DNA of 64,000 bases from Fidelibacterota bacterium (GTDB taxonomy: Bacteria; Fidelibacterota; UBA2242; JAOZSR01). The DNA lies in NCBI GenBank assembly GCA_029939575.1, contig JAOZSR010000005.1, forward strand, positions 9,997 through 73,996, in the 5' to 3' direction. Positions 20,267-41,065 of the stretch are shown here, piece after piece. A program made the position numbers and the translations under genes. Every line of letters starts with the position of its first letter. The stretch's first letter is position 1. The notes under the pieces were generated by a model. It was not told the DNA's origin, searched no databases, and was given only the letters and a program-made list of their open reading frames with translations.

Positions 20267-21109
20267 ATGATTAAAAGAATTTATTTTTTAACACCAGAAA
20301 TCGTTCCTTTTGCAGAATCATCAGGATTGGCAGAGTATTCTAAAGAAGTACCTGTAGTTTTTATTGACAGGAAATTTGATTTTAGAGTTATGATGCCTAA
20401 ATATGAATTTATTAGTGAAAGGCGATACATTTTACGTGAAGTTATTAGATTGCGTGACATGGAACTTCTTTATAAAGACCAGGCTATAAAAGCCTCAGTA
20501 AAGTCAGCTTTTATCCCAAACACTAAAGTCCAGGTATATTTCCTTGAAAATGAAAGTTTATATGATACAATTGATTCTGATTTATATCCAGATAAAGTAA
20601 AGCCCGATGACATACTAAACTCTAACCGTTTTGCTTATTTTGCTTCCGGTGCGTTAACCACGCTAAATTATTTACGCTGGAAACCTGATGTTATAATTTG
20701 TAATGATTGGCAAATGAGTATGATACCTCTTTTTATAAAATCAGGTCTTTTGGACAAAACTTATTTTGAAGGTGTAAAAATTGTCCAGATTATTCATTCC
20801 AAAACAGAGTCGTCAAAATTTAATTTGTCAGAGTATGAGGATGTAGGACTTACGAATCTTGATAAGACTTATAGTGAAGACAATACATTAGATTGTATTG
20901 CTGCTTCAATTCCATGTAGCGATCATGTTATTTTTCTGGATAATGATGATGATATGAGTCTGTTGGAAAAATATAAAGAAAATGCTCAAATGGGAAAAGT
21001 TTTAGAAATGGAAAAAGGAAAAATTTCAACCTATAAGATAAATAATAATACACCAGAGGAATGGCAGAAATTTGCAGATGAGTTTATTAAAATTGTACAA
21101 AAACTATAG
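20267..21109 (+). CDS. Glycogen/starch synthase N-terminal domain-only protein (Glyco_transf_5)
   Basis: TPEIVPF, RVMMPKY, PDVIICNDWQ resemble the GlgA N-domain; 280 aa with no C-terminal domain. Confidence 0.75.
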   Translation: MIKRIYFLTPEIVPFAESSGLAEYSKEVPVVFIDRKFDFRVMMPKYEFISERRYILREVIRLRDMELLYKDQAIKASVKSAFIPNTKVQVYFLENESLYDTIDSDLYPDKVKPDDILNSNRFAYFASGALTTLNYLRWKPDVIICNDWQMSMIPLFIKSGLLDKTYFEGVKIVQIIHSKTESSKFNLSEYEDVGLTNLDKTYSEDNTLDCIAASIPCSDHVIFLDNDDDMSLLEKYKENAQMGKVLEMEKGKISTYKINNNTPEEWQKFADEFIKIVQKL

Positions 21110-22379
21110 ATATAAAATTAAAAATGGACAAATAGTCCTTAATTCAAAAATAGTATCAAAAACTAACATAATATTCATAATGGCATTAGTTTTGGTTTTT
21201 CTGACTGGCTGTGAAGAAAAAGTTCCAACTCTTCCTTCACAATCATTGTTTGACCCAGACTCCTCTTTTTTAACCTACAGGATTGATGATATTATTTCAG
21301 ATACCACTTTTACTGTTGATCCTAAAATTGGAACCAGTAAAATATTAATTCTTGGTGAAGACGATTGGTGCTCCTCATATAGTTTGTTGAAATTTTCATC
21401 AATGCCGGAGTTAGATGGCAGTATTGATGTAATAAAGGAATTTAAACTTAATCTTTTTGCTGCTGATACTTTAGAAGATATTAGCGGTAAACTTGCCCTT
21501 TATTTAATTGACATGGCTAATGAAGGTGAGTGGAATGAAGATTCCTCAAATATTAATAACTTCAATCTGGATGAGTTAATTTATACACAACAAGATGGTG
21601 AGCTATTTCAAGATACTTTATCGCAATATGGGTTTAACCTGGATTTTGATATTTATCCTGATGATACACTAAATTCTTCACTGGAATTTGCATTAAAAGG
21701 AAAATCAGCCGAAATATTTAATATTACATCAGGGGAAAGTAGCCTGTATCCACGAATTAAATTAGTATATGCACATACTGATACTAATTATTATACTGTT
21801 TCCGGTACTGATACTACATTTAAAGATACTACCTATGATGTGACCAGCACTATAATAGTAAGCAGTGATATTTCCATCATTGATTTTAAACAGTTACCAG
21901 AACAAAATGAGCGGTTATATCTTTGTAATGGTGCAAGGAAGCATACATTTATTAAATTTGATTTATCTGAGGATATTCCTGATACAAATACTCTTATTGT
22001 AAAAATTAAATTGCATTTGTCAATTGATAATGATAATAGTTACAATAATTATGAAACAAATACAGATATCAAAGTAAACTGGGCTAATCCGGATACTCTT
22101 TCATGGCAGGATTCATTATATCTTCCTACAGTGAATAATTATTATGGCGCTTATAGTCCTGTATCAATTTTATCAGATACTGCAGTAGTTATTGACATTT
22201 TAAATAATATTAATGGAAACACACCAGGACCAACAGGAATAAAGGACTATGAAATTTTTCTTAGCCCTTCAGATATGAATGAATTGGACTTATTAAGCCT
22301 GTATAGTAGTTCGTGTCTTGATGAAACAAAACGCCCCTGGCTTGAAATATTGACCTTAAAGGAACAGATAAAAGAATGA
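21072..22379 (+). CDS. Acidic lipoprotein (DUF4270-like); true start uncertain, probably downstream of 21072
   Basis: Lipobox LVFLTGC, D/T/S-rich beta-type sequence; follows truncated glgA as in Bacteroidota. Confidence 0.55.
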   Translation: MQMSLLKLYKNYRYKIKNGQIVLNSKIVSKTNIIFIMALVLVFLTGCEEKVPTLPSQSLFDPDSSFLTYRIDDIISDTTFTVDPKIGTSKILILGEDDWCSSYSLLKFSSMPELDGSIDVIKEFKLNLFAADTLEDISGKLALYLIDMANEGEWNEDSSNINNFNLDELIYTQQDGELFQDTLSQYGFNLDFDIYPDDTLNSSLEFALKGKSAEIFNITSGESSLYPRIKLVYAHTDTNYYTVSGTDTTFKDTTYDVTSTIIVSSDISIIDFKQLPEQNERLYLCNGARKHTFIKFDLSEDIPDTNTLIVKIKLHLSIDNDNSYNNYETNTDIKVNWANPDTLSWQDSLYLPTVNNYYGAYSPVSILSDTAVVIDILNNINGNTPGPTGIKDYEIFLSPSDMNELDLLSLYSSSCLDETKRPWLEILTLKEQIKE

Positions 22380-23575
22380 GATATTTTTTAGCATATTTAA
22401 CATTTTCAATGACAATTTTATTAGGACAAACATCTAATTATTCTGCCTATGGTTTTGGAATGGAATGTAACACCCAATCTGTTAGGTCTATGGGTATTGG
22501 ATATACGGGAAGTGCTGTCAAAGATTCAGTAGCTTTAAATTCGTTAAATCCTGCTCTTTGGACCGGATTTTTTACTACATCCTTAAGTGGTCAGATAAAT
22601 TCAGATTATTTGATGTCTTCCGGTGATTACACCGATAGTTATCTGACAAAATTAAATGGATTTACTACTAAATTTCCGGTGGGAGAATATCTTGGTGTTG
22701 CTATTGGTATTGTTCCCAGAACGCGAATAAATAGTGTTGGGTCTACCTTGGATTCGGTTGCTTTTTATGATAATTTTGTAAATTATGAATCAATTATGCA
22801 AATCAAAGGTGGTATTTCTGAAATCTTTTTTGGAGCAGGATACCAGATAAGTCCTCAAATTAGTGTTGGACTGAAAAACAGATTGTTCTTTGGTGAATTT
22901 GTTACAAAAATTAATTCTGATTTTGATCTAACCGGGAATCTTGATAGTCAATTTCAAAGAAGAACAAAGGTCAAAGCTTCTCAATTGGGGATTGGAGTGG
23001 CCTGGCATAATATTAACAAATCCATGGGGGCTGCTGCTTATTTTAACAAAAATCTTGTTTTTAAATATAAACATGTAGAATTTTTTGAAGCCGGACCTGA
23101 ATATACTTATGATGAAAAAACAGCGGAATATCCTGATTTTATAAGGTTAGGACTCTATAAATCAACTCCATCAAAAATTAATTTTACAGTTGATTTTGAA
23201 TACTCTTTTATTTCCTCAGATGTTTTTAATGATTTTTATTTTATTAAGCCCATAGATGCTAAAAATTTCAGTTATTTTGGAATGGGAGTAGAGAAGAATT
23301 CAATTAATAACACTAAACGATTTTTGAATAAATTATCTTATCGCGCTGGTTTATATTATAAAAGTTATCCAATCAGTAATCCGGATAATTTGAAAGAAAC
23401 AGGTGTTAGTATTGGATTGGGAATTCCATTTTATCAGAATTTAAATAGAATTGATATTTCATTATCCATGGCTAACAGAAACGGATTTATAGAAAATTAT
23501 GAAGAAAAAGTAATTTCACTAAATATCGGAGTTACTACTGGTGGATTGTGGTTTAGGAGTTTTAGAAGGTATTAA
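22376..23575 (+). CDS. Outer-membrane beta-barrel protein (FadL/PorV-like superfamily)
   Basis: Signal peptide, RSMGIGYTG, LNPA, alternating beta-strand pattern, C-terminal LWFRSFRRY. Confidence 0.65.
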   Translation: MRYFLAYLTFSMTILLGQTSNYSAYGFGMECNTQSVRSMGIGYTGSAVKDSVALNSLNPALWTGFFTTSLSGQINSDYLMSSGDYTDSYLTKLNGFTTKFPVGEYLGVAIGIVPRTRINSVGSTLDSVAFYDNFVNYESIMQIKGGISEIFFGAGYQISPQISVGLKNRLFFGEFVTKINSDFDLTGNLDSQFQRRTKVKASQLGIGVAWHNINKSMGAAAYFNKNLVFKYKHVEFFEAGPEYTYDEKTAEYPDFIRLGLYKSTPSKINFTVDFEYSFISSDVFNDFYFIKPIDAKNFSYFGMGVEKNSINNTKRFLNKLSYRAGLYYKSYPISNPDNLKETGVSIGLGIPFYQNLNRIDISLSMANRNGFIENYEEKVISLNIGVTTGGLWFRSFRRY

Positions 23576-23592
23576 AAATTAGGGGGATTGAT

Positions 23593-24873
23593 ATGAAAAG
23601 AATGAATTTTAAAACCGGGTTGCTAATTATTTTGTTATTAATTAGTTTTTTGTTAATGAATTGTGTTCCACCTCCGGTAGAATCAGAAGAAAGTACAAAA
23701 GCGGCTGAAAAAGAAGTTTCAAATGTAGATAAAAGTAAATGTGATCGATATCTAAGTTTTGCATACAGTTATTATCAAAACTCAGATTGGGCAGGAACAA
23801 TAAAAAATTATAAACGCATGTTCGACTATAACTGTCTTGAAGATTATGCTGCGGATATTTTTCCATATATGGGAAGAGCCTATTTACAAATGGCAAAAGA
23901 AAATTCTGTATACCTGGATAGTGCGCTGTATATTTATCAACACGGTACAGAATATCTGCCGGAGAGAGAATCTTTACACGAAAGTATAGCATACATTTAT
24001 CGGAGACAGGGTAAAACTGATCTAGAGATTAGAGAATATGAAATAATGGCAGAAAGAAACCCATCTAATATTGAATTTTATAAAACTCTAATCAAACTCT
24101 ATTTCAAAGTTGATCGTTTTGACGATGTACTTTGGGCTATTGAAAAGATATTAGAAATTGATCCAGAAAATCAAGAAGTTATTAATGATAGATTAACAGT
24201 TTATCAAAAGCAGGGAAAAGATGTTATTGTAGTCCAACAAGAAGCCTGGGAAAACGATCCATCAACTCGTACAGGTCTTGATTATGCTAATGCTCTAACA
24301 GATAAGATGGAATATGCACTTGCTATTGCTGTTTTAGAAAAAGTTACTTTGGCGGACAGAAATAATATGGAAGCCTGGAATAAATTGGCAGATTTATATA
24401 AAACCACTGGAGATATTGATAAATCAATTACTACAAATATTCATATAATTAAGGCAATAGCACCTAAAAATATTGATATTTTTAAAAATATTATAGTTGG
24501 CTATAGTGATATGGCAAATTTTGAAGAAGCTTTTAAATGGGCAAGCAAAGCTGTCGAAACAATAGGTTCACCACAATCATATAAACTGAGAGGTGATATT
24601 TACTACGCAACTGCAGATTTTAATGCCAGTAGTGGGAAATTAACTTTTGAAGATAAATTAGTTTATAAATTAGCTTATGATGATTACCGTAAAGCTCTAA
24701 GTGGCGGTGAATCAAGTGTCCAGACTCGCATTGACTATTTAAAGGAGTACTTAATTCCTACAAGTGAAAATTGGTTTATGAACAGGTATAATGCTGATGG
24801 TAGTAAACGTGCAAATTTTCGTCCAAGAGGAGATGCTTATAATTGGATTACAGAAAGCGCGAAGAAAAACTAA
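23593..24873 (+). CDS. TPR-repeat lipoprotein
   Basis: Lipobox FLLMNC, repeated helical TPR-like segments. Confidence 0.7.
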   Translation: MKRMNFKTGLLIILLLISFLLMNCVPPPVESEESTKAAEKEVSNVDKSKCDRYLSFAYSYYQNSDWAGTIKNYKRMFDYNCLEDYAADIFPYMGRAYLQMAKENSVYLDSALYIYQHGTEYLPERESLHESIAYIYRRQGKTDLEIREYEIMAERNPSNIEFYKTLIKLYFKVDRFDDVLWAIEKILEIDPENQEVINDRLTVYQKQGKDVIVVQQEAWENDPSTRTGLDYANALTDKMEYALAIAVLEKVTLADRNNMEAWNKLADLYKTTGDIDKSITTNIHIIKAIAPKNIDIFKNIIVGYSDMANFEEAFKWASKAVETIGSPQSYKLRGDIYYATADFNASSGKLTFEDKLVYKLAYDDYRKALSGGESSVQTRIDYLKEYLIPTSENWFMNRYNADGSKRANFRPRGDAYNWITESAKKN

Positions 24874-27166: not shown

Positions 27167-27331
27167 ATGTTATCTGAAAAAATATTAGATATTTTAGTTT
27201 GTCCAAAATGTAAATGTAAACCTGAATACGAAACAAAAAAAGATTTGCTTATTTGCAAAAGATGTCAGTTAAAATTTTTAATAAAGGATAATATTCCAAT
27301 TATGCTAATTGAAGAGGCAGAAAAATATTAA
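27167..27331 (+). CDS. Trm112 family protein (54 aa, absent from the ORF track)
   Basis: Manual translation MLSEKILDILVCPKCKCKPEYETKKDLLICKRCQLKFLIKDNIPIMLIEEAEKY. Confidence 0.88.
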   Translation: MLSEKILDILVCPKCKCKPEYETKKDLLICKRCQLKFLIKDNIPIMLIEEAEKY

Positions 27332-27511: not shown

Positions 27512-28738
27512 ATGAAAAAAATATTTTTATTTATCGTTATATTAATAAGCACGAATTGTGCTTTATTCGCACAAAGTGAAGCTGGTGCGATTTGGCTATT
27601 GATAAATCCCGGTGCCAGGTCTTGCGGAATGGGTGAAACAGGTGCTGCTATTGCGAATGATACTTATGCTACATATTTTAATGCTGCGGGATTAGGCTTT
27701 CTAAAAGGTCATGAAATATCAGCCATGCATACAAACTGGTTGCCAAATCTGGCAAGTGATATGTATTATGATTTTATTGGTGGTAGAATGTATATCGAAA
27801 ATGTGGGTACTGTAGGAGCTAATATTACCATGATGAATCTTGGTACACAAACTGCTACAGATGAACAGGGCAATGTTTTAGGAGAATTTGATTCATATAT
27901 GTTAGCTGCCACTGCATCTTATGGCTCTAGATTATCAAGAACTACTTCTTTTGGTATAAATATTAAAATGATCCATCAGCACCTGACAGATTTCCTTGCC
28001 GGAGCAGAAAAAGGGAAAGGTGCTTCAACTAATTTTGCTTTTGATGTTGGCTATATGAAAAAAGAATTTTTATTGAAAAATCTCATATTGGGAGCTTCAA
28101 TCTCTAATATTGGACCAAAAATTTCGTTTATTGATGTTGCTCAGGCTGACCCAATGCCTACTAATTTAAAATTGGGATTTAATTTTCGGGCTATTGACCA
28201 GGAATATAATAAATTATCGATCACCTATGATATGAACAAACTGTTAGTTGCTTCATATCCAGACCGGGATATTGATGGCGATGGAGAAGTCGGGCAATAT
28301 AATGAAGACGGATTGCCTTTTCCGGGTGGGGAATATAATAAAGATGGAAAAAGAGAGCATGCTCATTCAGAAGAATGGTATACTGGTATTTTTACTTCAT
28401 GGATTGATGATTGGTTTTTATTAAAAGATTCTGCAGCAGACGGAATTGGTGATAAAGATAAAGATGGTGATACAAACGACGGTTCTCTGTCAAAAGAGAT
28501 AGAAAAACTTACTCATAATTTTGGTGTTGAATATTGGTACTCCAACCTGTTTGCAATTCGCTGTGGTTTTATCTATGATAAACCCGGGAAAATTTTGATG
28601 AAAGATAAATATCCTGTTCCGACTTTTGGAGCCGGATTGCGTTATGCCGGAATGGGTTTTGATTTTGGATATACTTATGGAGATCAGGGACATCCAAGAG
28701 CAAATACAATGCATTTTTCTATTAATATGAAATTTTAG
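27512..28738 (+). CDS. porV: PorV/PorQ family outer-membrane barrel (T9SS shuttle-like)
   Basis: INPGARSCGMGE, NAAGL, HTNWLPNLASDMYY, PTNLKLG, GVEYWY, C-terminal FSINMKF. Confidence 0.82.
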   Translation: MKKIFLFIVILISTNCALFAQSEAGAIWLLINPGARSCGMGETGAAIANDTYATYFNAAGLGFLKGHEISAMHTNWLPNLASDMYYDFIGGRMYIENVGTVGANITMMNLGTQTATDEQGNVLGEFDSYMLAATASYGSRLSRTTSFGINIKMIHQHLTDFLAGAEKGKGASTNFAFDVGYMKKEFLLKNLILGASISNIGPKISFIDVAQADPMPTNLKLGFNFRAIDQEYNKLSITYDMNKLLVASYPDRDIDGDGEVGQYNEDGLPFPGGEYNKDGKREHAHSEEWYTGIFTSWIDDWFLLKDSAADGIGDKDKDGDTNDGSLSKEIEKLTHNFGVEYWYSNLFAIRCGFIYDKPGKILMKDKYPVPTFGAGLRYAGMGFDFGYTYGDQGHPRANTMHFSINMKF

Positions 28739-28744
28739 GAAATA

Positions 28745-31700
28745 ATGAAAAAAAATATTCTTAGTTTACTGATAATATTAACAGTTACAGTTGGGTTATA
28801 TGCCAACAATCCTGTGAATAATATAAAATTATCCTTTTTGAATAAAAAAACAGTTTCAAAGCAAGTCGCTAAAAATTTGAGAAGCATCAAAATTTGCGCC
28901 CTGAGAGTTTCTTTTCAGAGTGATGAAAATGATGGTACTACCGGTGATGGTGATTTTCTGAAAAATGAAATTACCGATACATTATGTAATAATATCTGGA
29001 TAGACCCTCCTCCTCATAATCGCAGTTATTTTAAAGCACATATTAAATCTCTTTCAAACTATTATAAACAGGTTTCCAGGGGTAATTTTAATATTGACAC
29101 AATGAATTCGGAGATATTTCCTCTTGAAGAGAATAAAAGTTTTCAACTTTCCCATAAAATGGATTATTATCACCCATTTTTAGAGAAAGATTCAATTGAT
29201 GTGAGATTAGCCAGGCTTTTTACTGAATCTATTATTTTAGCCGATTCAGACATTAATTATTCTGATTATGACCTTGTAGTTATATTTCATGCCGGTGTTG
29301 GACAGGACTTTTCCATTCAACTTGACCCTACTCCTTATGATATTCCTTCTGCTTATATGAATATTAATGATATTCGACTTGGAATGAACTCTGACAATGA
29401 TGATCTCCCAGGAATTTCAGTTGATAATGGAAGTCATTTGATCTCAGATGGAATTATTTTACCGGAAAGTCAAAATCATTTGATCTATGACAATTGGGAA
29501 GATGTTTTTGGTAGTTCTGCTAATCCCTGTGAATACCAGATGGGATTGAATGGTACTTTTGCTTTTATGGTTGGATTTTATTTAGGATTACCCGGATTAT
29601 ATGATACTAATACCGGTGATACCGGGATTGGAAAATTTGGTCTGATGGATCAGGGTTCAGCAAATTTGAATGGTCTGGCAGCCGCTGTTCCTACTGCCTG
29701 GTCAAGATATTTTTTGGGATGGGTTGAGCCTGTAGTTGCCGGATCTTTCCAGGAAGTTAGTCTGCACCATGCAGAATCAAATTCTGATACTTTAATGTGG
29801 AAGATCCCAATTAATAATCATGAGTATTTCCTGGTTGAAAATCGCTATGCAAATGTGAGACCCGGAGTCAGTCTTGACAGTATTCAATATAGAATTTATG
29901 TGGAAAATGGTGAAGATGAATGGCCTCCATTATTACCATTGATCAAAGACTCGGCAAACACAGAATTTTGTGAAGAAACCGGTGTTCTAATGTCAATGGA
30001 AAACTATGATGTCGGTTTACCGGGATCTGGTTTGCTAATCTGGCATATTGACGAAAATATTATTAATGCAAACCTGTCTGACAATACTGTAAATGTAGAT
30101 AAAGAAAATCGCGGTGTTGATCTGGAAGAAGGAGATGGAGCACAGGATTTGGGTTATCCTGCTATGATGTTTGGCTCACCTGTTGATATTGGTTGGTTTT
30201 TTGACCCGTGGTTTGCCGGGAATGATGGTTTCTGGGAATTAAATCCTGATTTTCCTGAAGATAGCATTAAAAGTGTATCTTTTACGGATTATTCTAATCC
30301 TTCATCCAGAGCAAATGATTTAACTAATACCGGAATTAAGATCGAAAAAATCGGGCATGCAGGCAAAATAATGAATTTTGTAATTTCAAGAGAAAATAAT
30401 GTTGATAATTATCCTCTTGCCACTAATTTTCCAAATGCTCACATAACCGGATGTGATCTGGATGATACAGATAATTCCGAAGAATTTATCCTGATTACCG
30501 ATTCACTTTACCTTTACAATAGTTTAGGTGAATTATATACAAAAACTTCCCTGGCAATTCCCACTGATAGTCTATGTTGGTCAAAAGGTCTTGTTGTTAA
30601 TAATGATGACAAAAATTTACTTTTTCTTTTTTCCCGAAAAATTGACTCTACCAGCGTAATTAGTTACTGGGAAGTAAGTGAAACTGATATAAACTTAATA
30701 AAATGTGTATTTATCGGTGATATTCGATTAACCGGAAATTTATTTCCACGAGTTAATGAAATACTTTTTGGGGGATTTGATTCTGAAAATAAACTTTTCA
30801 GTTATTCCCTGATTGAACATACTTTTAAACCGGTTAACAACAACTATAAAATTGGACATATTGCAGGTATGGAAAATAAGACATTTGCTATTGCCGATGA
30901 TAATATTTTGGTAACTATTGACGGTGATTATCAAATTGATGAGATTGAAGAATTACCCGGTTTAAGCAATAATATTGTAGTTGGTTACATTAATGAAAAT
31001 AACAGCCCTGATATAGTTGTTAGCAGTGACAATTCTATAATACTTTTTACTGATCCACTAACCGAAGAAATGAATAAAATCAGCAGAATTTCTGATTTTT
31101 CAGGTAGATATCCGATTTTGTCTGATATTGATGCTGATGGACGGGTTGAAATTATTGTCAGAGATAGTTTAAGAATTTTTTCCTTAAATGAAAATTTAGT
31201 TATTGAAGAAAACTTTCCTGTTACTATTCCAAATATTTATAGTACTAAATATTTTAATTCTCTGTTATTTACAACTGATATTGATGGTGATGGTGTTTTG
31301 GATATTGTTACTAATATTCAGGATGTAGGGACTGTGTCCTATGATTATAAAGGAAATATGGTAGAAAATTTTCCACTTGTTTTTGCAAATCATAACAAGT
31401 TTGACCAGATTTTAATCAATTCTTCAAATGGAGTATATAACCTGGCAATAAATAATGATAACCGGGAATTAATTTGTCAAAAAATTTCTGATGAATATTT
31501 ATCAGAAAATTCCTGGAATGCCTTTGGTGGAAATAAGATAAATAATTTTTATTATAGTCCGATTTCGGGAAATACTCTATCATTATCAGGTGAACTTCTA
31601 AATAAGCAAAAAACCTTTAACTGGCCAAATCCGGTAAAAGGAACAAATGTGACATTTATCAGGTATTATACTGAAAAAGATTGTGAAATTGATATTGACA

Positions 31701-31882
31701 TTTTTGATTTAGCTGGTGATTTTATAACCTCCTTTCATGATTCAAATCCAAAAATTGCTGAGTACAATGAGAAAAAATGGAATGTTTCCGGAGTAGAGAG
31801 TGGAGTTTATTTTGCAGTTGTCAAAGCAATTTCCGGATCAGAAACAGAGACAAAAATTGTTAAAATAATGGTTATAAAATAA
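28745..31882 (+). CDS. M6 (immune inhibitor A)-like pseudo-metalloprotease with FG-GAP-like repeats and T9SS-type C-terminal sorting domain
   Basis: IFHAGVGQD, GTFAFMVGFYLGLPGLYD (no HExxH), EYFLVENR, GLLIWHID, DIDADG/DIDGDG, NWPNP..IFDLAG..SGVYF..KIVKIMVIK. Confidence 0.78.
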   Translation: MKKNILSLLIILTVTVGLYANNPVNNIKLSFLNKKTVSKQVAKNLRSIKICALRVSFQSDENDGTTGDGDFLKNEITDTLCNNIWIDPPPHNRSYFKAHIKSLSNYYKQVSRGNFNIDTMNSEIFPLEENKSFQLSHKMDYYHPFLEKDSIDVRLARLFTESIILADSDINYSDYDLVVIFHAGVGQDFSIQLDPTPYDIPSAYMNINDIRLGMNSDNDDLPGISVDNGSHLISDGIILPESQNHLIYDNWEDVFGSSANPCEYQMGLNGTFAFMVGFYLGLPGLYDTNTGDTGIGKFGLMDQGSANLNGLAAAVPTAWSRYFLGWVEPVVAGSFQEVSLHHAESNSDTLMWKIPINNHEYFLVENRYANVRPGVSLDSIQYRIYVENGEDEWPPLLPLIKDSANTEFCEETGVLMSMENYDVGLPGSGLLIWHIDENIINANLSDNTVNVDKENRGVDLEEGDGAQDLGYPAMMFGSPVDIGWFFDPWFAGNDGFWELNPDFPEDSIKSVSFTDYSNPSSRANDLTNTGIKIEKIGHAGKIMNFVISRENNVDNYPLATNFPNAHITGCDLDDTDNSEEFILITDSLYLYNSLGELYTKTSLAIPTDSLCWSKGLVVNNDDKNLLFLFSRKIDSTSVISYWEVSETDINLIKCVFIGDIRLTGNLFPRVNEILFGGFDSENKLFSYSLIEHTFKPVNNNYKIGHIAGMENKTFAIADDNILVTIDGDYQIDEIEELPGLSNNIVVGYINENNSPDIVVSSDNSIILFTDPLTEEMNKISRISDFSGRYPILSDIDADGRVEIIVRDSLRIFSLNENLVIEENFPVTIPNIYSTKYFNSLLFTTDIDGDGVLDIVTNIQDVGTVSYDYKGNMVENFPLVFANHNKFDQILINSSNGVYNLAINNDNRELICQKISDEYLSENSWNAFGGNKINNFYYSPISGNTLSLSGELLNKQKTFNWPNPVKGTNVTFIRYYTEKDCEIDIDIFDLAGDFITSFHDSNPKIAEYNEKKWNVSGVESGVYFAVVKAISGSETETKIVKIMVIK

Positions 31883-31883
31883 T

Positions 31884-34800
31884 ATGAATATATTAAAAAG
31901 ACACGTATTATGCGTTTTACTCATAATCTTAATAATAATTCCGGCAAATAGTTTTGCACAATTTTCAATTTTTAGATATAATCATCCGGAATTAGAGTGG
32001 AAAACATTTGAAACAAAACATTTTAGTGTTCATTATCATGAAGGTGCAGAATGGACAGCACAACAAAGTGCTGAGATCGCTGAGTCGATTTATGAACCTG
32101 TTACATCATATTATGATTTTCAACCTGATAAAAAAACTGATTTAGTTATCAAAGATACTGATGATGTTTCCAACGGAGCAGCATATTATTATGATAATAA
32201 AATAGAAATATGGGCTTCACCTTTAAATTTTTTATTACGCGGGAATCACAGCTGGTTACGTGATGTAATCACCCATGAATTTTCTCATATTGTATCACTT
32301 CAAAAGGGGATGAAATTTTCCCGTAATATACCGGGATTTTACTTCCAGGCAATTGGTTATGAAAAAGAAAAAAGAGATGATGTGATCTATGGTTACCCTT
32401 CGATTATCGCCTCTTATCCGATGCCCGGTTTGGTGATACCTATGTGGCTGGCCGAAGGAATTGCACAAAATATGTACCCTGGTTGCGGAAATGATCTCTG
32501 GGATACACATAGAGATATGTTAATGAGAGACAGAGCTTTATATGACAATATCCTTTCTCTTAACCAAATGGGCTCGTTTGGGAAACGGGGAATAGGAAAT
32601 GAAACTGTTTATAATCAGGGATATGCATTTGTACGTTATTTAAATAAGAGATTTGGAGATAATATTTGTCCTGATTTAATGGATAGAATATCGACACCAT
32701 TGCAAATTTCTATTAGTAATGCTCTAAAAAAAGAGACAGGGATTTCCGGATATAAAATTCATGAAGAGTGGAAAAAACAAATAACAGATAATTATAATGA
32801 ATTAACAAAAACTATCCGGGAGAATTCTGTTATTGGGGATATTTTGGAAAAAGGTGCTACTACCCAGATTTATCCTCAATGGTCTGGAGATTCTTTATTA
32901 TATTTTCTCTCCAATAAAGGGATGGATTCATTTTATTATACATCTCTTTATGTTTATAATACTAAAACTCAAAAGTCTGAATTAATAAAAGAAAATGTTC
33001 GTTCCAGGGTTTCTCCTTCACCGGATGGGAAATATATTTATTATTCAAGAAAAAGTTTACCAAACAAAGTCGGGTCAATATTTTATGACATTTATCGCTT
33101 GAATCTTGTTGACAAAGAAGAGGAACAGATTACTTTTTTTCGCCGGGCAATAAACCCTATACTTTCTCCCTGTGGAGAAAAAATTGTTTTTGTTACGATT
33201 AAAGATGGAAATTCAAATCTTGTAATCAGGAACCTTGATGAAGAAGGAAAAGAAACTGTTATAACTGATTTTTCTAATGGTGAACAACTTTTTGCTGCAA
33301 ATTTTTCACCTGATGGTAAAAAAATTGTCTTTGATTATTCTATAAATCATGGGCGTGATATTTTTGTTTATGAAATTGAATCGGAAAAAATCAGTTTGTT
33401 GGTTAATGGAGATTACGATTCACGTAATCCTTTTTATAGTCCTGATGGGAAATGGCTTTATTATTCATCTGACCAAACCGGAATTTTTAATATTTATCGC
33501 AAATCACTTGATAATAGCGAAACGCAACTTCTTACAAATGTACTTGGTGGGGCTTTTATGCCAACTGTAAATGAACAAGGAGTTTTGTGCTTTTCCCTTT
33601 TTAATGAATCAGAATATAGAATAAGTGTTTTGGAGAATCCCAAACCCTTAGATATTAGTCTATCCAGATATAAACCTGAGTATAAGGAAAATATTCCTGA
33701 AATGTCATATGTTGCTTCATTAAATAATTTAGAGGAAACAAAGTATAAAGACCGCTTTTCCAAATATTTTTTAATGCCGAAATTAATGCTTGATTATGGA
33801 ACTGTAAAACCGGGGTTGTATTTTTTTTCTAATGAAATAATAGACAGGTTTAATGTTTTTGGAGCAATTGCCGGAAATATACAAGGTGACAAAGACCTGG
33901 CAATGTTAGTTGAATATCATCAATGGACACCAACTTTTTATTTTGAAATTTATAGTATGAGTCGCAGTAAATTTGGTATCCAGGATACTATTAGTTCTTA
34001 TCCAATAGAATTTGATTATACATTTCATCTAATCCAATCTGTACTGGGTGCGTCATTGCCATCAAAAGGATTTAACAAATTTCGTTTTGATATGATATTA
34101 TCTAAGTTTCGTACTGCCACGGATGAAAGAATTCCAGAAGAAGGTATTTATCAAAATGGTTTTACTTATGATTATTATAAGGGTATAAATTTTAAACTTG
34201 ACTGGATTTTTAAAAAAATAATGTATTCGGTTAACCAGGAAACTAATCCAAATAACGGGATGCAGATAACAACTAGTATTTACAGAAATTATGACCGTTT
34301 CATTGAGGGTTTTGATGTTAATGGAAGTTATGGAACTTTGGAAACTCAATTTAGCAAAAATTATTATTGGAAATTAGAGCAGGAAGGTGTTGTGCATCAT
34401 AAGATACCTGTTATTTCGGATTTGATTGGGAATTTTAAATGGAAAGCCGGTTGGATATCAAATCGGAATATTGATTCATTCTTCAATTTTTTCGGTGGAG
34501 GATTACCTGGTTTGCGTGGATATCCTTTTTATAGTATTGAGGGTAGAAACCTTTTGAGTTTTCATTATACATTGAGGTATCCGATATTTTTAGAAAAGGA
34601 TATTCAGATAGGACCTTTTAATTTGCAGAATAGTATTTTGGGGCTATTTGTTGAATCCGGAAATGCCTTTGATGATATTCAGGGTTATCCTGATTTGAAA
34701 TGGGATGAATTTAAATCGTCACCAATAGATGTGATTTCAAATATTGGGAAAGATTTTAAAAGTGATGTTGGGATTGAATTAAAATTTAGTGGCTTTTCTT

Positions 34801-34937
34801 TTTATGCCTATCCGACAGCTATTAGTTTTGATTGTGTTTATGGATTGGATAAATTCAAAATTGAAGACAATCAATATCAGCAATTGGAATATGGTAGAGA
34901 ATGGCGAACATATTTGACAATTTTATTTGGTTTATAA
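31884..34937 (+). CDS. MA-clan metallopeptidase plus PD40/TolB propeller plus Omp85(BamA/TamA)-like barrel
   Basis: THEFSH, WLAEG, repeated SPDGK, GGLPGLRGY loop-6 motif, C-terminal YLTILFGL. Confidence 0.78.
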   Translation: MNILKRHVLCVLLIILIIIPANSFAQFSIFRYNHPELEWKTFETKHFSVHYHEGAEWTAQQSAEIAESIYEPVTSYYDFQPDKKTDLVIKDTDDVSNGAAYYYDNKIEIWASPLNFLLRGNHSWLRDVITHEFSHIVSLQKGMKFSRNIPGFYFQAIGYEKEKRDDVIYGYPSIIASYPMPGLVIPMWLAEGIAQNMYPGCGNDLWDTHRDMLMRDRALYDNILSLNQMGSFGKRGIGNETVYNQGYAFVRYLNKRFGDNICPDLMDRISTPLQISISNALKKETGISGYKIHEEWKKQITDNYNELTKTIRENSVIGDILEKGATTQIYPQWSGDSLLYFLSNKGMDSFYYTSLYVYNTKTQKSELIKENVRSRVSPSPDGKYIYYSRKSLPNKVGSIFYDIYRLNLVDKEEEQITFFRRAINPILSPCGEKIVFVTIKDGNSNLVIRNLDEEGKETVITDFSNGEQLFAANFSPDGKKIVFDYSINHGRDIFVYEIESEKISLLVNGDYDSRNPFYSPDGKWLYYSSDQTGIFNIYRKSLDNSETQLLTNVLGGAFMPTVNEQGVLCFSLFNESEYRISVLENPKPLDISLSRYKPEYKENIPEMSYVASLNNLEETKYKDRFSKYFLMPKLMLDYGTVKPGLYFFSNEIIDRFNVFGAIAGNIQGDKDLAMLVEYHQWTPTFYFEIYSMSRSKFGIQDTISSYPIEFDYTFHLIQSVLGASLPSKGFNKFRFDMILSKFRTATDERIPEEGIYQNGFTYDYYKGINFKLDWIFKKIMYSVNQETNPNNGMQITTSIYRNYDRFIEGFDVNGSYGTLETQFSKNYYWKLEQEGVVHHKIPVISDLIGNFKWKAGWISNRNIDSFFNFFGGGLPGLRGYPFYSIEGRNLLSFHYTLRYPIFLEKDIQIGPFNLQNSILGLFVESGNAFDDIQGYPDLKWDEFKSSPIDVISNIGKDFKSDVGIELKFSGFSFYAYPTAISFDCVYGLDKFKIEDNQYQQLEYGREWRTYLTILFGL

Positions 34938-34951
34938 TGGAGGTATAGATA

Positions 34952-35860
34952 ATGAAAAAAAATAATTTTAAAATATTTGGGATAATTTTCTTATTATCTG
35001 CAATTGGATTTGGACAGGTGATGAGTAGCGGATCTGTTCTGCAACCATCATCTGAACAAAGTATGCTGCTTGGTTCTATAAAATATGGAAGAATGCAGGA
35101 TGAATTCAAAGCTGATAGTATTGATTTTACTTATGAAAAATCTCCCGGATTAGCATTTTTAATGTCAATAGTGCTTCCCGGAGCCGGAGAATTCTATTCC
35201 GGAAAAAAAATGCGGGCATTAGGTTTTTTTGGAGCAGAGGCATTATTTTGGGCAGGATATTTTTCTCAGAAAAATAAAGGACAGAATATCAAAGATAAAT
35301 ATGAAAATTATGCTGATGAAAATTGGAGCCTGGCTGAATGGCTTACTATAAGTAATACCAATGACTATTCTTTTTGTGGGATAGAAGGATCACATAGCAT
35401 TTGGGTTGAATATAATAACAATGCTTATATGGCTAATGATTCACTGGAATTTTACACAGGCAAAAATACATTTGAATTGATTAATCTTGCAGAAAACGGA
35501 CAACTTACACCTGTAAAAACCAGGGATTATTATGAAAATATTGGGAAATACCACCAGTTTTCCTGCGGATGGGATGATTTTAAAGATTTTCATAGTGTTG
35601 GTGATACTGTATGTGTTGTATCAGATAACCGGGATTATTATCTTTCAGAAAGAGAAAAATCTAACAAATCTTTGAAAATGGCAACTAATTTTGCCACTGC
35701 TGTTATGTTTAATCATTTATTTAGCGCCCTGCATGCCCAGATAGCAGCAAAACAATATCGATCGGAAGAAGCCAGCAAAGTAAGTTGGGATATGGGATTA
35801 ATGACAGATGTCCGGTATAAAAATTTCGTTCGCGGAGTTAAATTTTCATTACTTTTTTAG
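34952..35860 (+). CDS. Exported DUF5683-like hypothetical protein
   Basis: Signal peptide, KSPGLAFLMSIVLPGAGEFY hairpin, C-terminal GVKFSLLF. Confidence 0.55.
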   Translation: MKKNNFKIFGIIFLLSAIGFGQVMSSGSVLQPSSEQSMLLGSIKYGRMQDEFKADSIDFTYEKSPGLAFLMSIVLPGAGEFYSGKKMRALGFFGAEALFWAGYFSQKNKGQNIKDKYENYADENWSLAEWLTISNTNDYSFCGIEGSHSIWVEYNNNAYMANDSLEFYTGKNTFELINLAENGQLTPVKTRDYYENIGKYHQFSCGWDDFKDFHSVGDTVCVVSDNRDYYLSEREKSNKSLKMATNFATAVMFNHLFSALHAQIAAKQYRSEEASKVSWDMGLMTDVRYKNFVRGVKFSLLF

Positions 35861-35933
35861 TTTGAAAAATTATTAGAGTGAAAATATTTTACTTTTATAA
35901 TAGATAAAAAAAATTGACAATAGGAGAAATAGA

Positions 35934-36770
35934 GTGAAATTTGATAAATTGAAATTTATCTGCTTAACTTTACTATTATTGATATTAACAGGATGTGGTT
36001 CTAAACAACCGGAACTATATAATGATTATTCAAAGTATTTTGAAGAAGGCGAAATTGCTTTTAAGAAAAAGAAATATGAAAAAGCGATTGAAAAATTTAG
36101 CATGGTTATTTTAAACAGCCCGGGTGGTGATCTGGCTGATGATTCACAATTTTATCTTGGCGAATGTTATTTTCAAAAGAAAGAATACTTGCTGGCAATT
36201 TCGGAATATGAACAATTAATTCAGCGTTATTCTTATAGTCCTCTGGTGGAAGAATCATATTACAAAATCGCGATTTCTTATATCAATCATGCTCCAAAAT
36301 ATCAATTGGATCAGGAAAGTACTCATAAGGCATTCCAGAGATTACAGGAGTTTGTAGATACTTTTCCACATAGTAAATTTTTACCGGATGCTGAGATTAA
36401 AATAGAGGAAGTACGAAATAAGCTTGCCAGAAAATTGTATGAAAGTGGACGCCTTTATCGGAAATTAAATGAATATAATTCAGCAATTATATATTTTGAT
36501 AAAATGTTGAAAAAATATTATGATACTGATTGGGCATATTTAGCCAAGGTGGAAAAAGCCCGTTGTTTAATCCAATTGAGAAAGTTTGAAGAATATCAAA
36601 AACTTTATGCCAAAGTTAATAGAGAAAAAGATGAAATTATAAACAGCCAGGATTCAAAGTTAAAATCCTTAATAAATCCCGGCGAAAAAATTGAATTATT
36701 AGATAAATTATATAAAAAAGAACTTGCTGAAATCGAAAAAGAAAAGAAAAAAACGGAAAAACGTTGGTAA
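35934..36770 (+). CDS. bamD: Outer membrane protein assembly factor BamD
   Basis: Lipobox ILTGC, TPRs, YQLDQEST, RNKLARKLYESGRLY. Confidence 0.88.
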   Translation: MKFDKLKFICLTLLLLILTGCGSKQPELYNDYSKYFEEGEIAFKKKKYEKAIEKFSMVILNSPGGDLADDSQFYLGECYFQKKEYLLAISEYEQLIQRYSYSPLVEESYYKIAISYINHAPKYQLDQESTHKAFQRLQEFVDTFPHSKFLPDAEIKIEEVRNKLARKLYESGRLYRKLNEYNSAIIYFDKMLKKYYDTDWAYLAKVEKARCLIQLRKFEEYQKLYAKVNREKDEIINSQDSKLKSLINPGEKIELLDKLYKKELAEIEKEKKKTEKRW

Positions 36771-37354
36771 ATATTTGTCTTTTCGGTGGAACATTTGATC
36801 CACCTCATTTTGCCCATTTATCTCTTGCTGAAACAGTTTTAAGAACTACAGTAGTTGATAAGGTGGTTTTTATACCTGCTTTTTTACCTCCTCATAAATC
36901 AAACAAATCCTATTCTAATATTCAACATCGGATAAATATGCTTGATCTTGCCCTGGAAAATCGGGATGAGTTTGAGATTTCTGAAATTGAATCTGAAAGA
37001 AAGGGAAAGTCGTATACTGTCGATACACTTAAAGAATATCAGAAACAATTCAATATTAAAAAGGAAAATCTTTTTTTTTTAATAGGAAGTGATAGCCTGG
37101 TAAATTTTCATGCCTGGAGAAAACCGGATGAAATATTAAACCTGGCTCAAATACTTGTTGTACTTAGGCCCACTTTTTCTAAAAATAGTGTTGATTCTCA
37201 ACTTTTAAAACAGGTTAAATTTCTGGATTCCCCTCTATCAGATATTTCTTCCAGCATGATTCGGCAATATCTAAAAGCAGGAAGATCGGTTAAACATTTG
37301 ATTCCTGAAAAAGTGCTGACTTATATCCGCCGAAATGAATTGTACACATTCTAA
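36764..37354 (+). CDS. nadD: Nicotinate-nucleotide adenylyltransferase
   Basis: FGGTFDPPHFAH, PPHK, SYTVDTL, FLIGSDS, ISSSMIR. Confidence 0.95.
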   Translation: MVNICLFGGTFDPPHFAHLSLAETVLRTTVVDKVVFIPAFLPPHKSNKSYSNIQHRINMLDLALENRDEFEISEIESERKGKSYTVDTLKEYQKQFNIKKENLFFLIGSDSLVNFHAWRKPDEILNLAQILVVLRPTFSKNSVDSQLLKQVKFLDSPLSDISSSMIRQYLKAGRSVKHLIPEKVLTYIRRNELYTF

Positions 37355-37535: not shown

Positions 37536-40500
37536 TTAGAAAATATAACTTAATCCAATCTGCATCTGCCATTTTGAAAGCACAGATACATCATCAATAT
37601 AGGAATCTTTAAGATTTGTATTAAAACCAAAGTATGGAGTTCCATTAGCATCTACGCCATTTACTGAAATTGGATTATAGGTATTAGGTAGTTGACGTAC
37701 TCCAAAATTTGAACTGATCATATTTCCAAAATTTAAAATATCAAATGATAGACGGATTGTATGATCTCTGTCAGCAAAATTTAATTTTACATCCTGCATA
37801 ACTCTTACGTCAATCTGACTGAACCATGGTAAAGTTGCGCCATGACGTTCTGCATAATCGCCTCTTCTTTCTTTCAGGTAATCATCCTGTTCAATAAAAG
37901 CATCCAGAGCAGCCCACTGAGCAGCAGCATCAGAAGCTTCTGTTGCGATACCATCTGTAACACTACCAAAATGTATATCGCTTGCGTTTTCAGGCACATA
38001 AAGAAGATCATTATTAGCAATACCGTCCTGATTTAAATCACCTGCGTATGTAAAGGAATATCTGTTACCTTTACCTGCTTCAAAGAATACAGCAACGGAA
38101 GTTTTCATGTTTTTGTACTCTTTATTATACATTAATGAAGAAATAATTCTGTGATTCAGTCCATAACGAGAATGAGTAAACATAGGATCATTTGGATTAC
38201 CGACAATAGGATTACGCTGGAAAGCATCAGCTGCAATTTCTGCAGGAATTGAAGTCAAATCTTTTGATTCCATATATGTATATGCTACATTTGCTTTTAA
38301 ACCAAAAGTAAAGTTCTTTTCCAGTTTTCCGGTAAAGTTATATTGATGTCCTTTTTTTGTATTATCAAGAATAATTACTCCTGCGTCAAGAAAACCAATA
38401 GAATTTGCACTGGCTGAATAAATATTTGATTCATTAAAACCTGCAAACATTTCCCTTGTATCACCAGTTCCGGTTAATTGACCGGAAGGTGGTAACATAT
38501 TATAATTACGATGGACTACAGCGTTGATATCTTTTGAGATCAATCCTTCAAAAGTAGCAATCCAACCGTCACCAAAGGATTTGTCAACTGCAATATTGTT
38601 TTTCCAAACCTGTGGAAAATGAAAACCTTCAGAAGTTGCATTTACCTGGAATTCATAACCGGGATCAATTCTTGAATTTGTTGATTGATTACCAAGCCAT
38701 ACAAAAGGAATGCGGCCAGAGAAAATACCAGATCCACCACGAACCTGCATACTTCTGTCGCCATATACATCCCAGTTAAATCCAAAACGTGGAGCCCATA
38801 AAGGATTGGCTGAAGGCCATTGTGAAGGATCAAGTTTTACTGATTCGCCATCTTCATTTACCCAACCATCAAAGTCTTTAACTTCATCATTAGGATCAAT
38901 TTCATTCATGTAGATAGGTAGATCCATTCTTAAGCCAAAAGTAAGTTTAAGATTGTCCTTATATTTATAATCATCCTGAATATAGAGACCTAATTGAGCA
39001 ACATCTACATAAGCCCATGCATAATCATTTTGCTGAGCAGCTGCAACCTGTGCATCAAAATCAATATCATCCCTGGTTGTACTTAAAAAATGATCAACGC
39101 TTTCGAAAGTATTCCATGGATAATAGAAAAGATTGAAGGAGTTATCAAATTTAAACATTTCAAAATTTATCCCGGCAGTAAAAGTGTGTCTGTCTTTATA
39201 GTATGATAGATTATTGGTAAACTGAAAAACATCCTGATATAATCTATTATGAGTTGAAAACATTTCTGAACCCATTGTAATTGCAAGATTTCCGTTTGCA
39301 TCAAAAATATCAAGTACTGGATATGGTTTAGAATGAGGATTTCTTTCATCTCTAAAAATAGTGTATCCAATTAACATATCATTTGACAGATTACTGGAAA
39401 AACGTGAGTGTAATTCTGATACTACTGAATGAATTTTATTGGCAATTGTATAAGATGAGTTTTCAAAAGGAAGGCGATAACTTGTAGGACCACGACCAAT
39501 AATAGCTTCCGGATGTGGAAGGATATCTTTCCACGCATCAAGATAATTATATCTGAAGGAAAAATTATGAATATCAGAAATATTCCAATCAACTTTTAGA
39601 AGGAATTTATTGTTATAAGTTTCGTGATTGTATCCTTGATAATCACCAGGTTCATATCCCCAGTAATCTCTTAATCTGTTTTGTACTGCCTGAATATCAG
39701 CCTCATTTACACTTGTTACATTTGCACCTGTATGATTTGCATCTTTTTTTGCTACAAAACCATGTGCCAATTCATCGCGACGTTCTGCTTCAGCATTAAC
39801 AAAAACAAATAATTTGTTTTTAATAATTGGTGCACCCAAGCTGAAACCGGTCTGAGTTGTATTAAAATCAAGATTTTCAGTTTCAGTATCACCAACTTTT
39901 TTCCCAATCATGGCTTCATTTCTTTGATAGTGATATACTTTTCCTTTAATCTGGTTTGTGCCGGATTTTGTAACTGCATTAACACCAGCCCCGGTAAATC
40001 CACTTTCACGGATATCAAAAGGAGCCAGTGAAACCTGTATCTGTTCAATAGCATCAAGTGATACCGGTTGTGCATCTGCCTGACCACCCGGAGTCGCATA
40101 ATCCAAACCAAATGAATTATTAAAAATTGATCCGTCTAAAGAAAAGTTATTATAAAGATTGTTACGTCCTCCAAAACTGTTTCCGTCAGATTCCGGTGTC
40201 AGCCTGGTGAGATCTTTTGCACTTCTTGCAATAGTTGGCATACTTTCCAGGTCTTCACTTTTTATAAAAGTGGCTGAGCCTGTACGATCCGCATTGATCA
40301 CGCCATCTTTGTTAGCTGTAACAACTACTTCATCCATTTCTACTGTTTTCTGTTCTAGAGTAATGTTAACTGTGTAATCTTCACCTACTTTAAGAAAAAT
40401 GTTTTCTAACCTTGCGGTTACATATCCAATGTAACTGACTTTTACTTCATAAGGTCCGCCTACACGAACATTTGATACATTGAAAAAACCATCTTCACGT

Positions 40501-40679
40501 GTTGAACTTCCATATACCGTTCCTGATGGTATATGAGTAATTACAATATTTGTCCCCAAAAGTCCTGTTCCGTCGGTATCTGTGATTCTGCCGTCAAAAC
40601 TCGCTGTTGTTACACCCTGTGCTAATACTAATACAGGAATCAACATAATTAATAAAGTAAAAAGTCCTCTTAACTTCAT
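37536..40679 (-). CDS. TonB-dependent receptor (Oar-like) with N-terminal carboxypeptidase-regulatory-like domain
   Basis: GRITD..GPYEVKVSYIGY, plug SLDAIEQIQV..GAGVNAVTKSGTN, C-terminal QIGLSYIF; ATG 40679 preceded by GGAGG. Confidence 0.9.
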   Translation of the reverse strand: MKLRGLFTLLIMLIPVLVLAQGVTTASFDGRITDTDGTGLLGTNIVITHIPSGTVYGSSTREDGFFNVSNVRVGGPYEVKVSYIGYVTARLENIFLKVGEDYTVNITLEQKTVEMDEVVVTANKDGVINADRTGSATFIKSEDLESMPTIARSAKDLTRLTPESDGNSFGGRNNLYNNFSLDGSIFNNSFGLDYATPGGQADAQPVSLDAIEQIQVSLAPFDIRESGFTGAGVNAVTKSGTNQIKGKVYHYQRNEAMIGKKVGDTETENLDFNTTQTGFSLGAPIIKNKLFVFVNAEAERRDELAHGFVAKKDANHTGANVTSVNEADIQAVQNRLRDYWGYEPGDYQGYNHETYNNKFLLKVDWNISDIHNFSFRYNYLDAWKDILPHPEAIIGRGPTSYRLPFENSSYTIANKIHSVVSELHSRFSSNLSNDMLIGYTIFRDERNPHSKPYPVLDIFDANGNLAITMGSEMFSTHNRLYQDVFQFTNNLSYYKDRHTFTAGINFEMFKFDNSFNLFYYPWNTFESVDHFLSTTRDDIDFDAQVAAAQQNDYAWAYVDVAQLGLYIQDDYKYKDNLKLTFGLRMDLPIYMNEIDPNDEVKDFDGWVNEDGESVKLDPSQWPSANPLWAPRFGFNWDVYGDRSMQVRGGSGIFSGRIPFVWLGNQSTNSRIDPGYEFQVNATSEGFHFPQVWKNNIAVDKSFGDGWIATFEGLISKDINAVVHRNYNMLPPSGQLTGTGDTREMFAGFNESNIYSASANSIGFLDAGVIILDNTKKGHQYNFTGKLEKNFTFGLKANVAYTYMESKDLTSIPAEIAADAFQRNPIVGNPNDPMFTHSRYGLNHRIISSLMYNKEYKNMKTSVAVFFEAGKGNRYSFTYAGDLNQDGIANNDLLYVPENASDIHFGSVTDGIATEASDAAAQWAALDAFIEQDDYLKERRGDYAERHGATLPWFSQIDVRVMQDVKLNFADRDHTIRLSFDILNFGNMISSNFGVRQLPNTYNPISVNGVDANGTPYFGFNTNLKDSYIDDVSVLSKWQMQIGLSYIF

Positions 40680-41065
40680 CCAACCTCCATTTTTTTGTGA
40701 AATTTCTTTCACTTCTGTTAAAATAACTACCTCAAAATTTGAATATTCAATTTGACAAAAAAATAGTTGAAAAAAATATGTAATACAAATGTTATCTTCA
40801 TTCTATTTAAATAAAATAAAGATATTGTAACTAATTGGAAAAATTGAGATTAGAATAGTAGATTGTATTTCTATTTATTTCTTATTTGATGTTTTTAAAA
40901 AGTTAAGATTTTGTGTAATTGGAGATCAAAAATTGAATAGTATTTTGACTTATTTTCTGGTTTATGTAAGAGATTATAAACACATTTTAATTACCTGTGA
41001 TTTTTTGAAAAATGCTATGGAAAATAGCTTTTCAATCCGTTTCGGTTGTTTTATATTTATAGGCT

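Follow-up and report, generated by a model that had tools for sequence, protein, structure and literature searches.

The closest described counterpart of the locus considered here is the attachment complex PorU-PorV-PorZ-PorQ in the system for type IX secretion (T9SS), known from Porphyromonas and Flavobacterium. PorU acts on the cell surface, and it is there that cleavage of the C-terminal domain (CTD) occurs. To our knowledge, no Omp85-type barrel or DUF5683-like protein belongs to this complex. This report presents an analysis of a 64,000-nt stretch of DNA from a Fidelibacterota bacterium (contig JAOZSR010000005.1 of assembly GCA_029939575.1, positions 9,997 to 73,996; hereafter, the window). 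Within it, a porV-like gene is followed by genes for an apparently dead, CTD-bearing protease of 1045 amino acids (M6i), a probable Omp85-type barrel protein of 1017 amino acids with a peptidase domain (P3), a DUF5683-like protein of 302 amino acids (P4), and the lipoprotein BamD. The conserved unit consists of the first four genes, porV-M6i-P3-P4, and occurs in at least four named phylum-level lineages with differing flanks. The fifth gene, bamD, is a neighbour in one phylum and lies outside that unit.

The cassette and the attachment complex have several traits in common. Both place the gene of a PorV-family barrel beside that of a large CTD-bearing, propeller-containing protein; the CTD profile of M6i aligns with the CTDs of PorU (6za2) and PorZ (5m11); and in some cassette lineages porU lies directly upstream, as in the porU-porV operon of Bacteroidota. 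M6i itself differs from both Bacteroidota proteins, as it resembles a dead M6 metalloprotease and is neither a C25 sortase (PorU) nor a double propeller (PorZ). A second described counterpart is found in the Omp85 superfamily, whose accepted members include subfamilies without POTRA domains (PMC4104836). The “WD40-like Omp85” subfamily was defined by Heinz & Lithgow in 2014 with no function assigned to it (PMC4104836). Each member in Table S3 of that paper has BamA/TamA barrel, TolB, and aminopeptidase hits, and the members include Caldithrix abyssi H1XQ58 and proteins of Rhodothermus, Salinibacter, Cloacimonas, Chlorobi, and several Proteobacteria, with the same architecture in Anaeromyxobacter, Sorangium, Sideroxydans, and Geobacter. 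P3 has this three-part architecture: its BamA/TamA-like barrel is preceded by an aminopeptidase-like domain and a TolB-like propeller. The 2014 paper speculated on a BamA-BamB fusion and gives neither genomic context nor function, nor any link to porV, M6i, or P4 (PMC4104836). One of the loci compared below, from Caldithrix (L061), has a P3 orthologue, which is likened to H1XQ58 through the listing of Caldithrix abyssi in that table.

Conservation of gene order is the principal evidence that the four genes belong together. At least 585 genomes (one genome per GTDB species) contain a relative of P3; the best 80 loci were compared by tblastn with the window proteins, and the denominators are the loci with enough flank. 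M6i lies directly upstream of P3 in 66 of 67 loci, PorV upstream of M6i in 57 of 58, and P4 downstream of P3 in 71 of 72, with a single locus (L075) as the sole exception in all three counts. The loci are labelled Marinimicrobia/Neomarinimicrobiota/Fidelibacterota, KSB1, Caldithrix, and LCP-89 (a phylum of the Fibrobacterota-Chlorobiota-Bacteroidota [FCB] group), together with unlabelled metagenome-assembled genomes. Median intergenic gaps within the cassette are 0-33 nt; in the window the gaps between the five genes are, in order, 6, 1, 14, and 73 nt. The flanks vary by lineage. Upstream are nrdR/glyA or a tripartite ATP-independent periplasmic (TRAP) transporter (Marinimicrobia), accC-gcvH-gcvP (KSB1, Caldithrix), or porU; downstream are bamD-nadD in Marinimicrobia only and an rmlD-like gene or others elsewhere. 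The original prediction had read five same-strand genes in the window, and both the genes and their gaps were reproduced at the exact coordinates (Table 1). It had named a lack of conserved gene order as grounds for its refutation; porV-M6i-P3-P4 does keep its order over at least four lineages, which leaves the prediction unrefuted on this point, and bamD does so in Marinimicrobia only. A scan for promoters and terminators in the window gave counts equal to those of shuffled sequence, so that operon boundaries were not obtained.

The cassette persists at considerable divergence. At about 31% identity to P3, locus L090 still encodes PorV-M6i-P3-P4a-P4b with overlapping genes, and L089 encodes M6i-P3. 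Paralogues of P3 at 25-29% identity have unrelated surroundings, in which PorV, M6i, and P4 are all missing; the tie to porV therefore belongs to one orthologous group and not to the whole Omp85 subfamily. In three such loci, the gene ahead of the distant paralogue encodes an exported protein of 320-400 amino acids that has no annotation (L085, 132-1340; L087, 5946-7028; L088, 7048-8004). Two of these proteins have a terminal Phe, two show homology to one another (E 2e-11), and the upstream genes matched no NCBIfam family; they may encode another kind of barrel partner for the Omp85 subfamily.

Domain assignments were made by Pfam and NCBIfam/TIGRFAM profile searches against curated cut-offs. 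The first protein of the cassette belongs to the PorV/PorQ family (NF033709, 262.8 bits, cut-off 90; PF19572, 86 bits), in agreement with the T9SS shuttle barrel of the original prediction. Its score with the PorV equivalog model NF033710 (203.6 bits) is below the cut-off of 250, and the PorV model is nonetheless its best match, ahead of PorQ (64 bits) and PorV2 (51 bits). The cassette PorV of locus L083 passes the equivalog model with 261.5 bits. Relative to that model, the window protein carries an Asp/Gly-rich insertion at residues 240-330 (nt 28229-28501; DRDIDGDGE...DKDKDGDTNDGS), which looks like calcium-binding loops. PorV proteins of marine Marinimicrobia are longer still (452-526 amino acids), and a KSB1 locus (L057) has an extra, strongly diverged PorV/PorQ-family gene at 8687-9943 (41 bits to NF033709) between M6i and P3.

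M6i aligns from end to end (residues 5-1045 on model positions 4-1043) with NF052323, a curated NCBIfam family of 1043 model positions named “T9SS-dependent M6-like inactivated metalloprotease”. The window protein, at 538.3 bits, narrowly misses the cut-off of 600, whereas cassette orthologues in L083 (883 bits) and L067 (638 bits) exceed it. After a signal peptide come an M6-like domain (about residues 46-553), a region of FG-GAP/propeller type, and, at residues 960-1038 (nt 31622-31858), a type A CTD that is above both thresholds (PF18962, 43.5 bits; TIGR04183, 34.9 bits). A single-sequence search against the PDB matched nothing to the M6 domain; a match came from the profile alone, as a profile of 24 M6i orthologues aligns to Bacillus InhA (4yu5; E 3.4e-5). 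In this alignment the HxxxH...D stretch of InhA, FAHAFGHDLGLPDEYD, falls on FAFMVGFYLGLPGLYD of the window M6i. FMVGF occupies the HExxH position, with Met at the place of the catalytic Glu, and G284 occupies the position of the Asp ligand; both zinc-binding His residues and the Asp are lost. Orthologues read LLMGS, FMMGF, and similar at the same site, and among 59 of them a single one contains an HExxH at any position. Judged by these residues, M6i is catalytically dead, an M6 fold with its HExxH...D site lost and a type A CTD attached. The original prediction of a CTD-bearing cargo whose protease site has been destroyed is thus borne out in the window protein and in its orthologues. The accessions that follow NF052323 are NF052324 (PorU2) and NF052325 (PorV2), although the cassette PorV is PorV-like and not PorV2-like (51 bits versus 325). 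This run of consecutive accessions suggests that the curators already associate M6i with PorU- and PorV-like proteins.

In an AlphaFold2 model of P3 (pLDDT 86.6, pTM 0.85), a signal peptide is followed by an alpha/beta, gluzincin-like peptidase domain (residues 39-315), a TolB-like propeller (319-583), and a barrel of 16 main strands (629-1015). The loop between strands 11 and 12 reads GGGLPGLRGY, in which LRGY (877-880) matches the Omp85 L6 motif (V/I/L)RG(F/Y); by profile search it aligns with FFAGGDRSIRGY of TamA. F866, F867, G872, G876, G879, and Y880 are invariant in this loop, and a profile of the C-terminal 417 residues matched TamA barrels exactly at the L6 motif (E 0.015-0.05). PF01103 is found in 3 of 20 P3 orthologues (best E 2.8e-6) and in several database homologues; it has no Pfam match in the window P3, and the single sequence did not match a barrel in the PDB, where only the profile did. 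Both marks of the Omp85 superfamily, the 16-strand barrel and the L6 motif, are thus present in P3 by way of the model and weak profile scores. The Omp85 type of the barrel is supported, not proven. No POTRA domain is seen in the model, in which about 45 poorly structured residues (584-628) lie between propeller and barrel, and PF07244 has no match in P3.

The combination of a PorV-family barrel with an Omp85-type barrel invites comparison with the machinery for assembling beta-barrels (BAM) in Flavobacterium, in which BamA binds the FadL-like barrel BamG beneath an extracellular canopy (PMC12611786, PMC12578637). On this model, P3 and PorV would pair as BamA and BamG do, under a T9SS-delivered M6i cap that replaces the BamH-K lipoproteins, and their task would be the insertion or assembly of some special class of surface proteins. 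The Flavobacterium precedent and the L6 motif retained in P3 speak for such a machine, as does a profile alignment of PorV with BamG-like proteins over about 287 columns (E 8.6e-4), but the hhalign probability of that alignment is only 23.6%, P3 lacks POTRA domains and with them the usual substrate-handling arm, and the same window has a separate BamG-like gene. A BAM-like machine built from P3 and PorV is thus very improbable. The BamG-like outer-membrane protein is encoded at 22376-23575 (NF053685, 137.6 bits, cut-off 250, full-length alignment), between an unknown 435-residue open reading frame (ORF) and a tetratricopeptide repeat (TPR) protein. The trio (21072-24873, + strand) is syntenic in close Marinimicrobia relatives and could correspond to the FCB-type BAM accessory set reported in 2025.

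The peptidase site of P3 is, to judge from its residues, intact. HEFSH (residues 131-135) and WLAEG (188-192, with E191) make up the motif. H131, E132, H135, and E191 are invariant in 34 homologues and again among 19 sequences that include distant paralogues (25-30% identity), and 76 of 78 orthologues carry the motif. Its placement in any one peptidase family is weak: P3 scores 28.1 bits with Peptidase_MA_2, under its cut-off of 32.4, and a profile of the peptidase domain matched no solved peptidase. Profile searches found PD40/TolB repeats in the propeller. A fold search of the full model against the PDB returned only the propellers of TolB and of S9 peptidases; this search was dominated by propeller matches and says nothing on the barrel. 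For the protease-bearing Omp85 of the original prediction, then, the HExxH...E site and the propeller stand, while the barrel has the more qualified status given above. The peptidase should face the periplasm, since N-terminal enzyme domains are periplasmic in Omp85 topology and in PlpD, an Omp85 enzyme fusion (PMC11116518).

Behind its signal peptide, P4 contains a hydrophobic helical hairpin that is conserved, along with long helices; its C-terminal beta-hairpin ends in an aromatic residue. Its score with DUF5683 (PF18935; 18 bits, E 0.003) is under the gathering score of 26.7. About a third of the listed P4 homologues, all annotated as hypothetical, have precomputed PF18935 matches, so “DUF5683-like” is a fair label; of the exported DUF5683-like protein originally predicted, the signal peptide and the kinship are upheld, and the window protein itself falls short of the family cut-off. 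The helical hairpin has the family motif KSPxxAxLxSxxxPGxGxxYxG...F...E...W. Other conserved motifs are YYExIGKYxQFxxGW and NHxxSAxxA, and the last strand ends in W or F. The AlphaFold2 model (pLDDT 80.3) consists chiefly of long helices, with lower confidence in the C-terminal hairpin, and a fold search against the PDB gave no match better than E ≈ 1. Outside Marinimicrobia there are two tandem P4 paralogues, P4a and P4b, of about 250-290 amino acids each (L019, L024, L029, L047, L058, L061, L067, L077, L078, L090, and others). Relative to P4a, P4b is missing the middle segment and has an extra insert ahead of the conserved GW motif.

A tie to type IX secretion comes from the neighbouring genes of other lineages. 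In L077 (LCP-89), a canonical porU (NF033707, 743 bits, cut-off 420) lies directly upstream of porV, and relatives of this PorU occupy the same position in L067 (KSB1), L083, and L079; porU is not at that place in the window. The originally reported absence of porK/L/M/N, sprA, and porU from the window held for the ORFs scanned: their NCBIfam models matched none of the 46 larger window ORFs (a small ORF at 46085-46453 was outside the scan), and a Pfam scan of further window ORFs found no T9SS core domain. Nor did the genes called in the adjoining 10 kb to the left and right of the window, within the 189-kb source contig, match T9SS core components or porU. The same contig encodes, about 1.7 kb past the right end of the window (12657-13736 in L092), a second Por_Secre_tail CTD protein, of 359 amino acids, so that the organism encodes other type A CTD cargo. 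A PorU-seeded protein search, made with a word index of limited reach, returned no match labelled Marinimicrobia. One candidate from this search (P0336) proved to be an unrelated C25 peptidase in another locus.

BamD is identified as a TPR lipoprotein by TIGR03302 (149.9 bits, cut-off 81.4) and an LTGC lipobox, as originally proposed. Together with nadD, a housekeeping gene that accompanies it in Marinimicrobia, bamD follows P4 in 46 of 66 loci. These are all 46 of the Marinimicrobia type; the 20 loci without it belong to KSB1, Calditrichota, LCP-89, and others. BamD docks on POTRA5 of BamA. A partnership between BamD and P3 is unlikely, because P3 is without POTRA domains and the adjacency of bamD is lineage-specific.

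The original prediction combined all five genes into one lineage-specific machine. In it, P3 would either stand in for PorU or work with it in processing or anchoring CTD cargo, with M6i as the scaffold and BamD as a partner dedicated to the P3 barrel. The intact, invariant metallopeptidase site of P3, the PorV and CTD protein encoded next to it, the presence of bamD in every Marinimicrobia-type locus, and the lack of a PorU match labelled Marinimicrobia in the PorU-seeded search are all consistent with such a machine. It is, however, quite improbable. Outside Marinimicrobia bamD is never beside the cassette, and where it is present it always comes with the cytoplasmic gene nadD; P3 has no POTRA domain to bind BamD; canonical PorU adjoins the cassette in four loci; and CTD cleavage takes place at the surface, while Omp85 topology and PlpD put the P3 protease in the periplasm. 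For the last two reasons, P3 is unlikely to replace PorU in CTD cleavage. “Lineage-specific” was likewise an overstatement for a cassette found in several phyla.

On balance, we lean towards a functional linkage of porV, M6i, P3, and P4 as an accessory module of the T9SS; confidence in any specific biochemical role is low. M6i would be exported by the T9SS and kept on the cell surface, where PorV would hold it by its CTD in the way that PorV and PorQ hold PorU and PorZ in Porphyromonas. Its role at that site may be that of a non-catalytic binding or scaffold subunit. P3 would be an outer-membrane protein whose zinc peptidase and TolB-like propeller lie on the periplasmic side, where it may trim or degrade polypeptides associated with the complex (stalled or unexported CTD proteins, CTD remnants), as BepA does beside BAM. 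P4 would be a membrane-associated helical partner of P3 that may attach to the barrel by way of its terminal aromatic beta-hairpin. Such a quality-control or trimming role beside PorV and M6i is favoured because a periplasmic protease is poorly placed to remove CTDs at the surface and because PorU coexists with the cassette. The likeness to BAM with BepA, and to PlpD, lies in an Omp85 barrel with a periplasmic hydrolase and in a zinc protease next to an Omp85 protein; P3 differs in lacking a POTRA domain and in a peptidase that falls outside family M48.

P3 and P4 might instead form a general device for outer-membrane biogenesis and quality control, an Omp85 paralogue with a BepA/TolB-like periplasmic module and no specific role in the T9SS, whose place beside porV reflects co-regulation or inherited clustering of envelope genes. 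The architecture does extend far beyond T9SS-bearing phyla (PMC4104836 Table S3), the distant paralogues stand alone or by other unknown outer-membrane-protein-like genes, and the neighbourhood in the window is rich in envelope genes (BamG-like, CpoB-like, bamD). Against this, the orthologous group at or above about 31% identity stays next to porV-M6i, at the near-complete frequencies given above, while other neighbours change; the gene overlaps and short gaps suggest co-translation or an operon; and porU joins the same string in four loci. A general device is unlikely. A more far-reaching proposal, that the cassette is an unrecognised outer-membrane machine of non-Bacteroidota FCB phyla, is distinctly doubtful. 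In such a machine, the POTRA-less P3 would be physically coupled to PorV and to a T9SS-delivered M6i cap, an arrangement reminiscent of the Omp85, FadL-like barrel, and canopy of Bacteroidota BAM; the periplasmic P3 protease and propeller, with P4 as a membrane partner, would link the T9SS to Omp85-mediated insertion or quality control of surface proteins.

Several points weigh against the accessory module. Synteny is evidence of linkage, not of mechanism, and we infer that PorV retains M6i, how the P3 domains are oriented, and where P4 lies. No SprA, PorK/L/M/N, or PorU was located for the window organism in the 64-kb window and its 10-kb flanks. In a search of sequencing runs, the sequence was present only in DNA metagenomes (hydrothermal vents, marine sediment), and no RNA runs contained it. 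The Marinimicrobia neighbourhood also keeps the unrelated housekeeping genes nadD and glyA, so that long-lived synteny without shared function occurs in this phylum.

All parts of the cassette belong to catalogued families, and nothing in it is categorically new; the description of the locus as undescribed was too strong with respect to P3, whose architecture is in PMC4104836, and to M6i, which is in NCBIfam. Literature searches on the T9SS in Marinimicrobia or FCB phyla, on DUF5683, and on PorV in combination with Omp85 yielded no description of this cassette. The linkage of porV, M6i, a WD40-like Omp85 peptidase, and a DUF5683-like protein, sometimes with porU, appears to be undescribed.

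The cassette and its adjoining genes are listed in Table 1. Predicted signal peptide cleavage exposes Gln in PorV (27512-27577), P3 (31884-31961), and P4 (34952-35017), after ...FA or ...FG, and resembles the Bacteroidetes “Q-rule”. This rule was reported in Bacteroidetes and is said not to extend to the FCB group as a whole. Upstream, the 439-nt gap between nrdR and porV contains a Trm112-like zinc-ribbon ORF of 54 amino acids (27167-27331, + strand), which is called as a gene in the relative L001 too. Just past nadD, a convergent gene (37536-40712, - strand) encodes a 1058-residue outer-membrane protein with CarboxypepD_reg and OMP_b-brl_4 domains (TonB-dependent-receptor-like). Farther downstream (48636-50293, + strand), a response regulator resembling RssB (its 312 bits with the Pseudomonas RssB model fall short of the cut-off) lies beside an RssC-like anti-sigma-factor antagonist, a pairing unexpected for this phylum.

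Table 1. Positions in the window of the cassette genes, their diagnostic sites, and the two genes that adjoin them downstream.
Feature	Position (nt)	Strand	Description
porV	27512..28738	+	PorV/PorQ-family outer-membrane barrel, PorV nearest
M6i	28745..31882	+	Exported, apparently dead M6-like protein with type A CTD
M6i, destroyed zinc site	29564..29605	+	By profile alignment to InhA (4yu5)
P3	31884..34937	+	“WD40-like Omp85” architecture
P3, metallopeptidase motif	32274..32459	+	HEFSH + WLAEG; apparently intact
P3, Omp85 L6-like loop	34479..34535	+	FFNFFGGGLPGLRGYPFYS; between barrel strands 11 and 12
P4	34952..35860	+	DUF5683-like protein
bamD	35934..36770	+	Lipoprotein; adjoining, same strand, outside conserved core
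nadD	36764..37354	+	TIGR00482, 194 bits; 7-nt overlap with bamD

The tempting reading of bamD as part of the system is corrected: bamD adjoins the cassette and is not a subunit of it. The WD40-like Omp85 proteins have been orphans since the 2014 catalogue despite their abundance (the P3 profile matches 2085 clusters at 50% identity with E ≤ 1e-30), and the partnership of one of their orthologous groups with porV, a pseudo-protease, and in places porU gives them a first concrete and testable context. The T9SS outside Bacteroidota, in abundant groups of the ocean and sediment such as Marinimicrobia, may have accessory parts that are absent from the Porphyromonas and Flavobacterium models.

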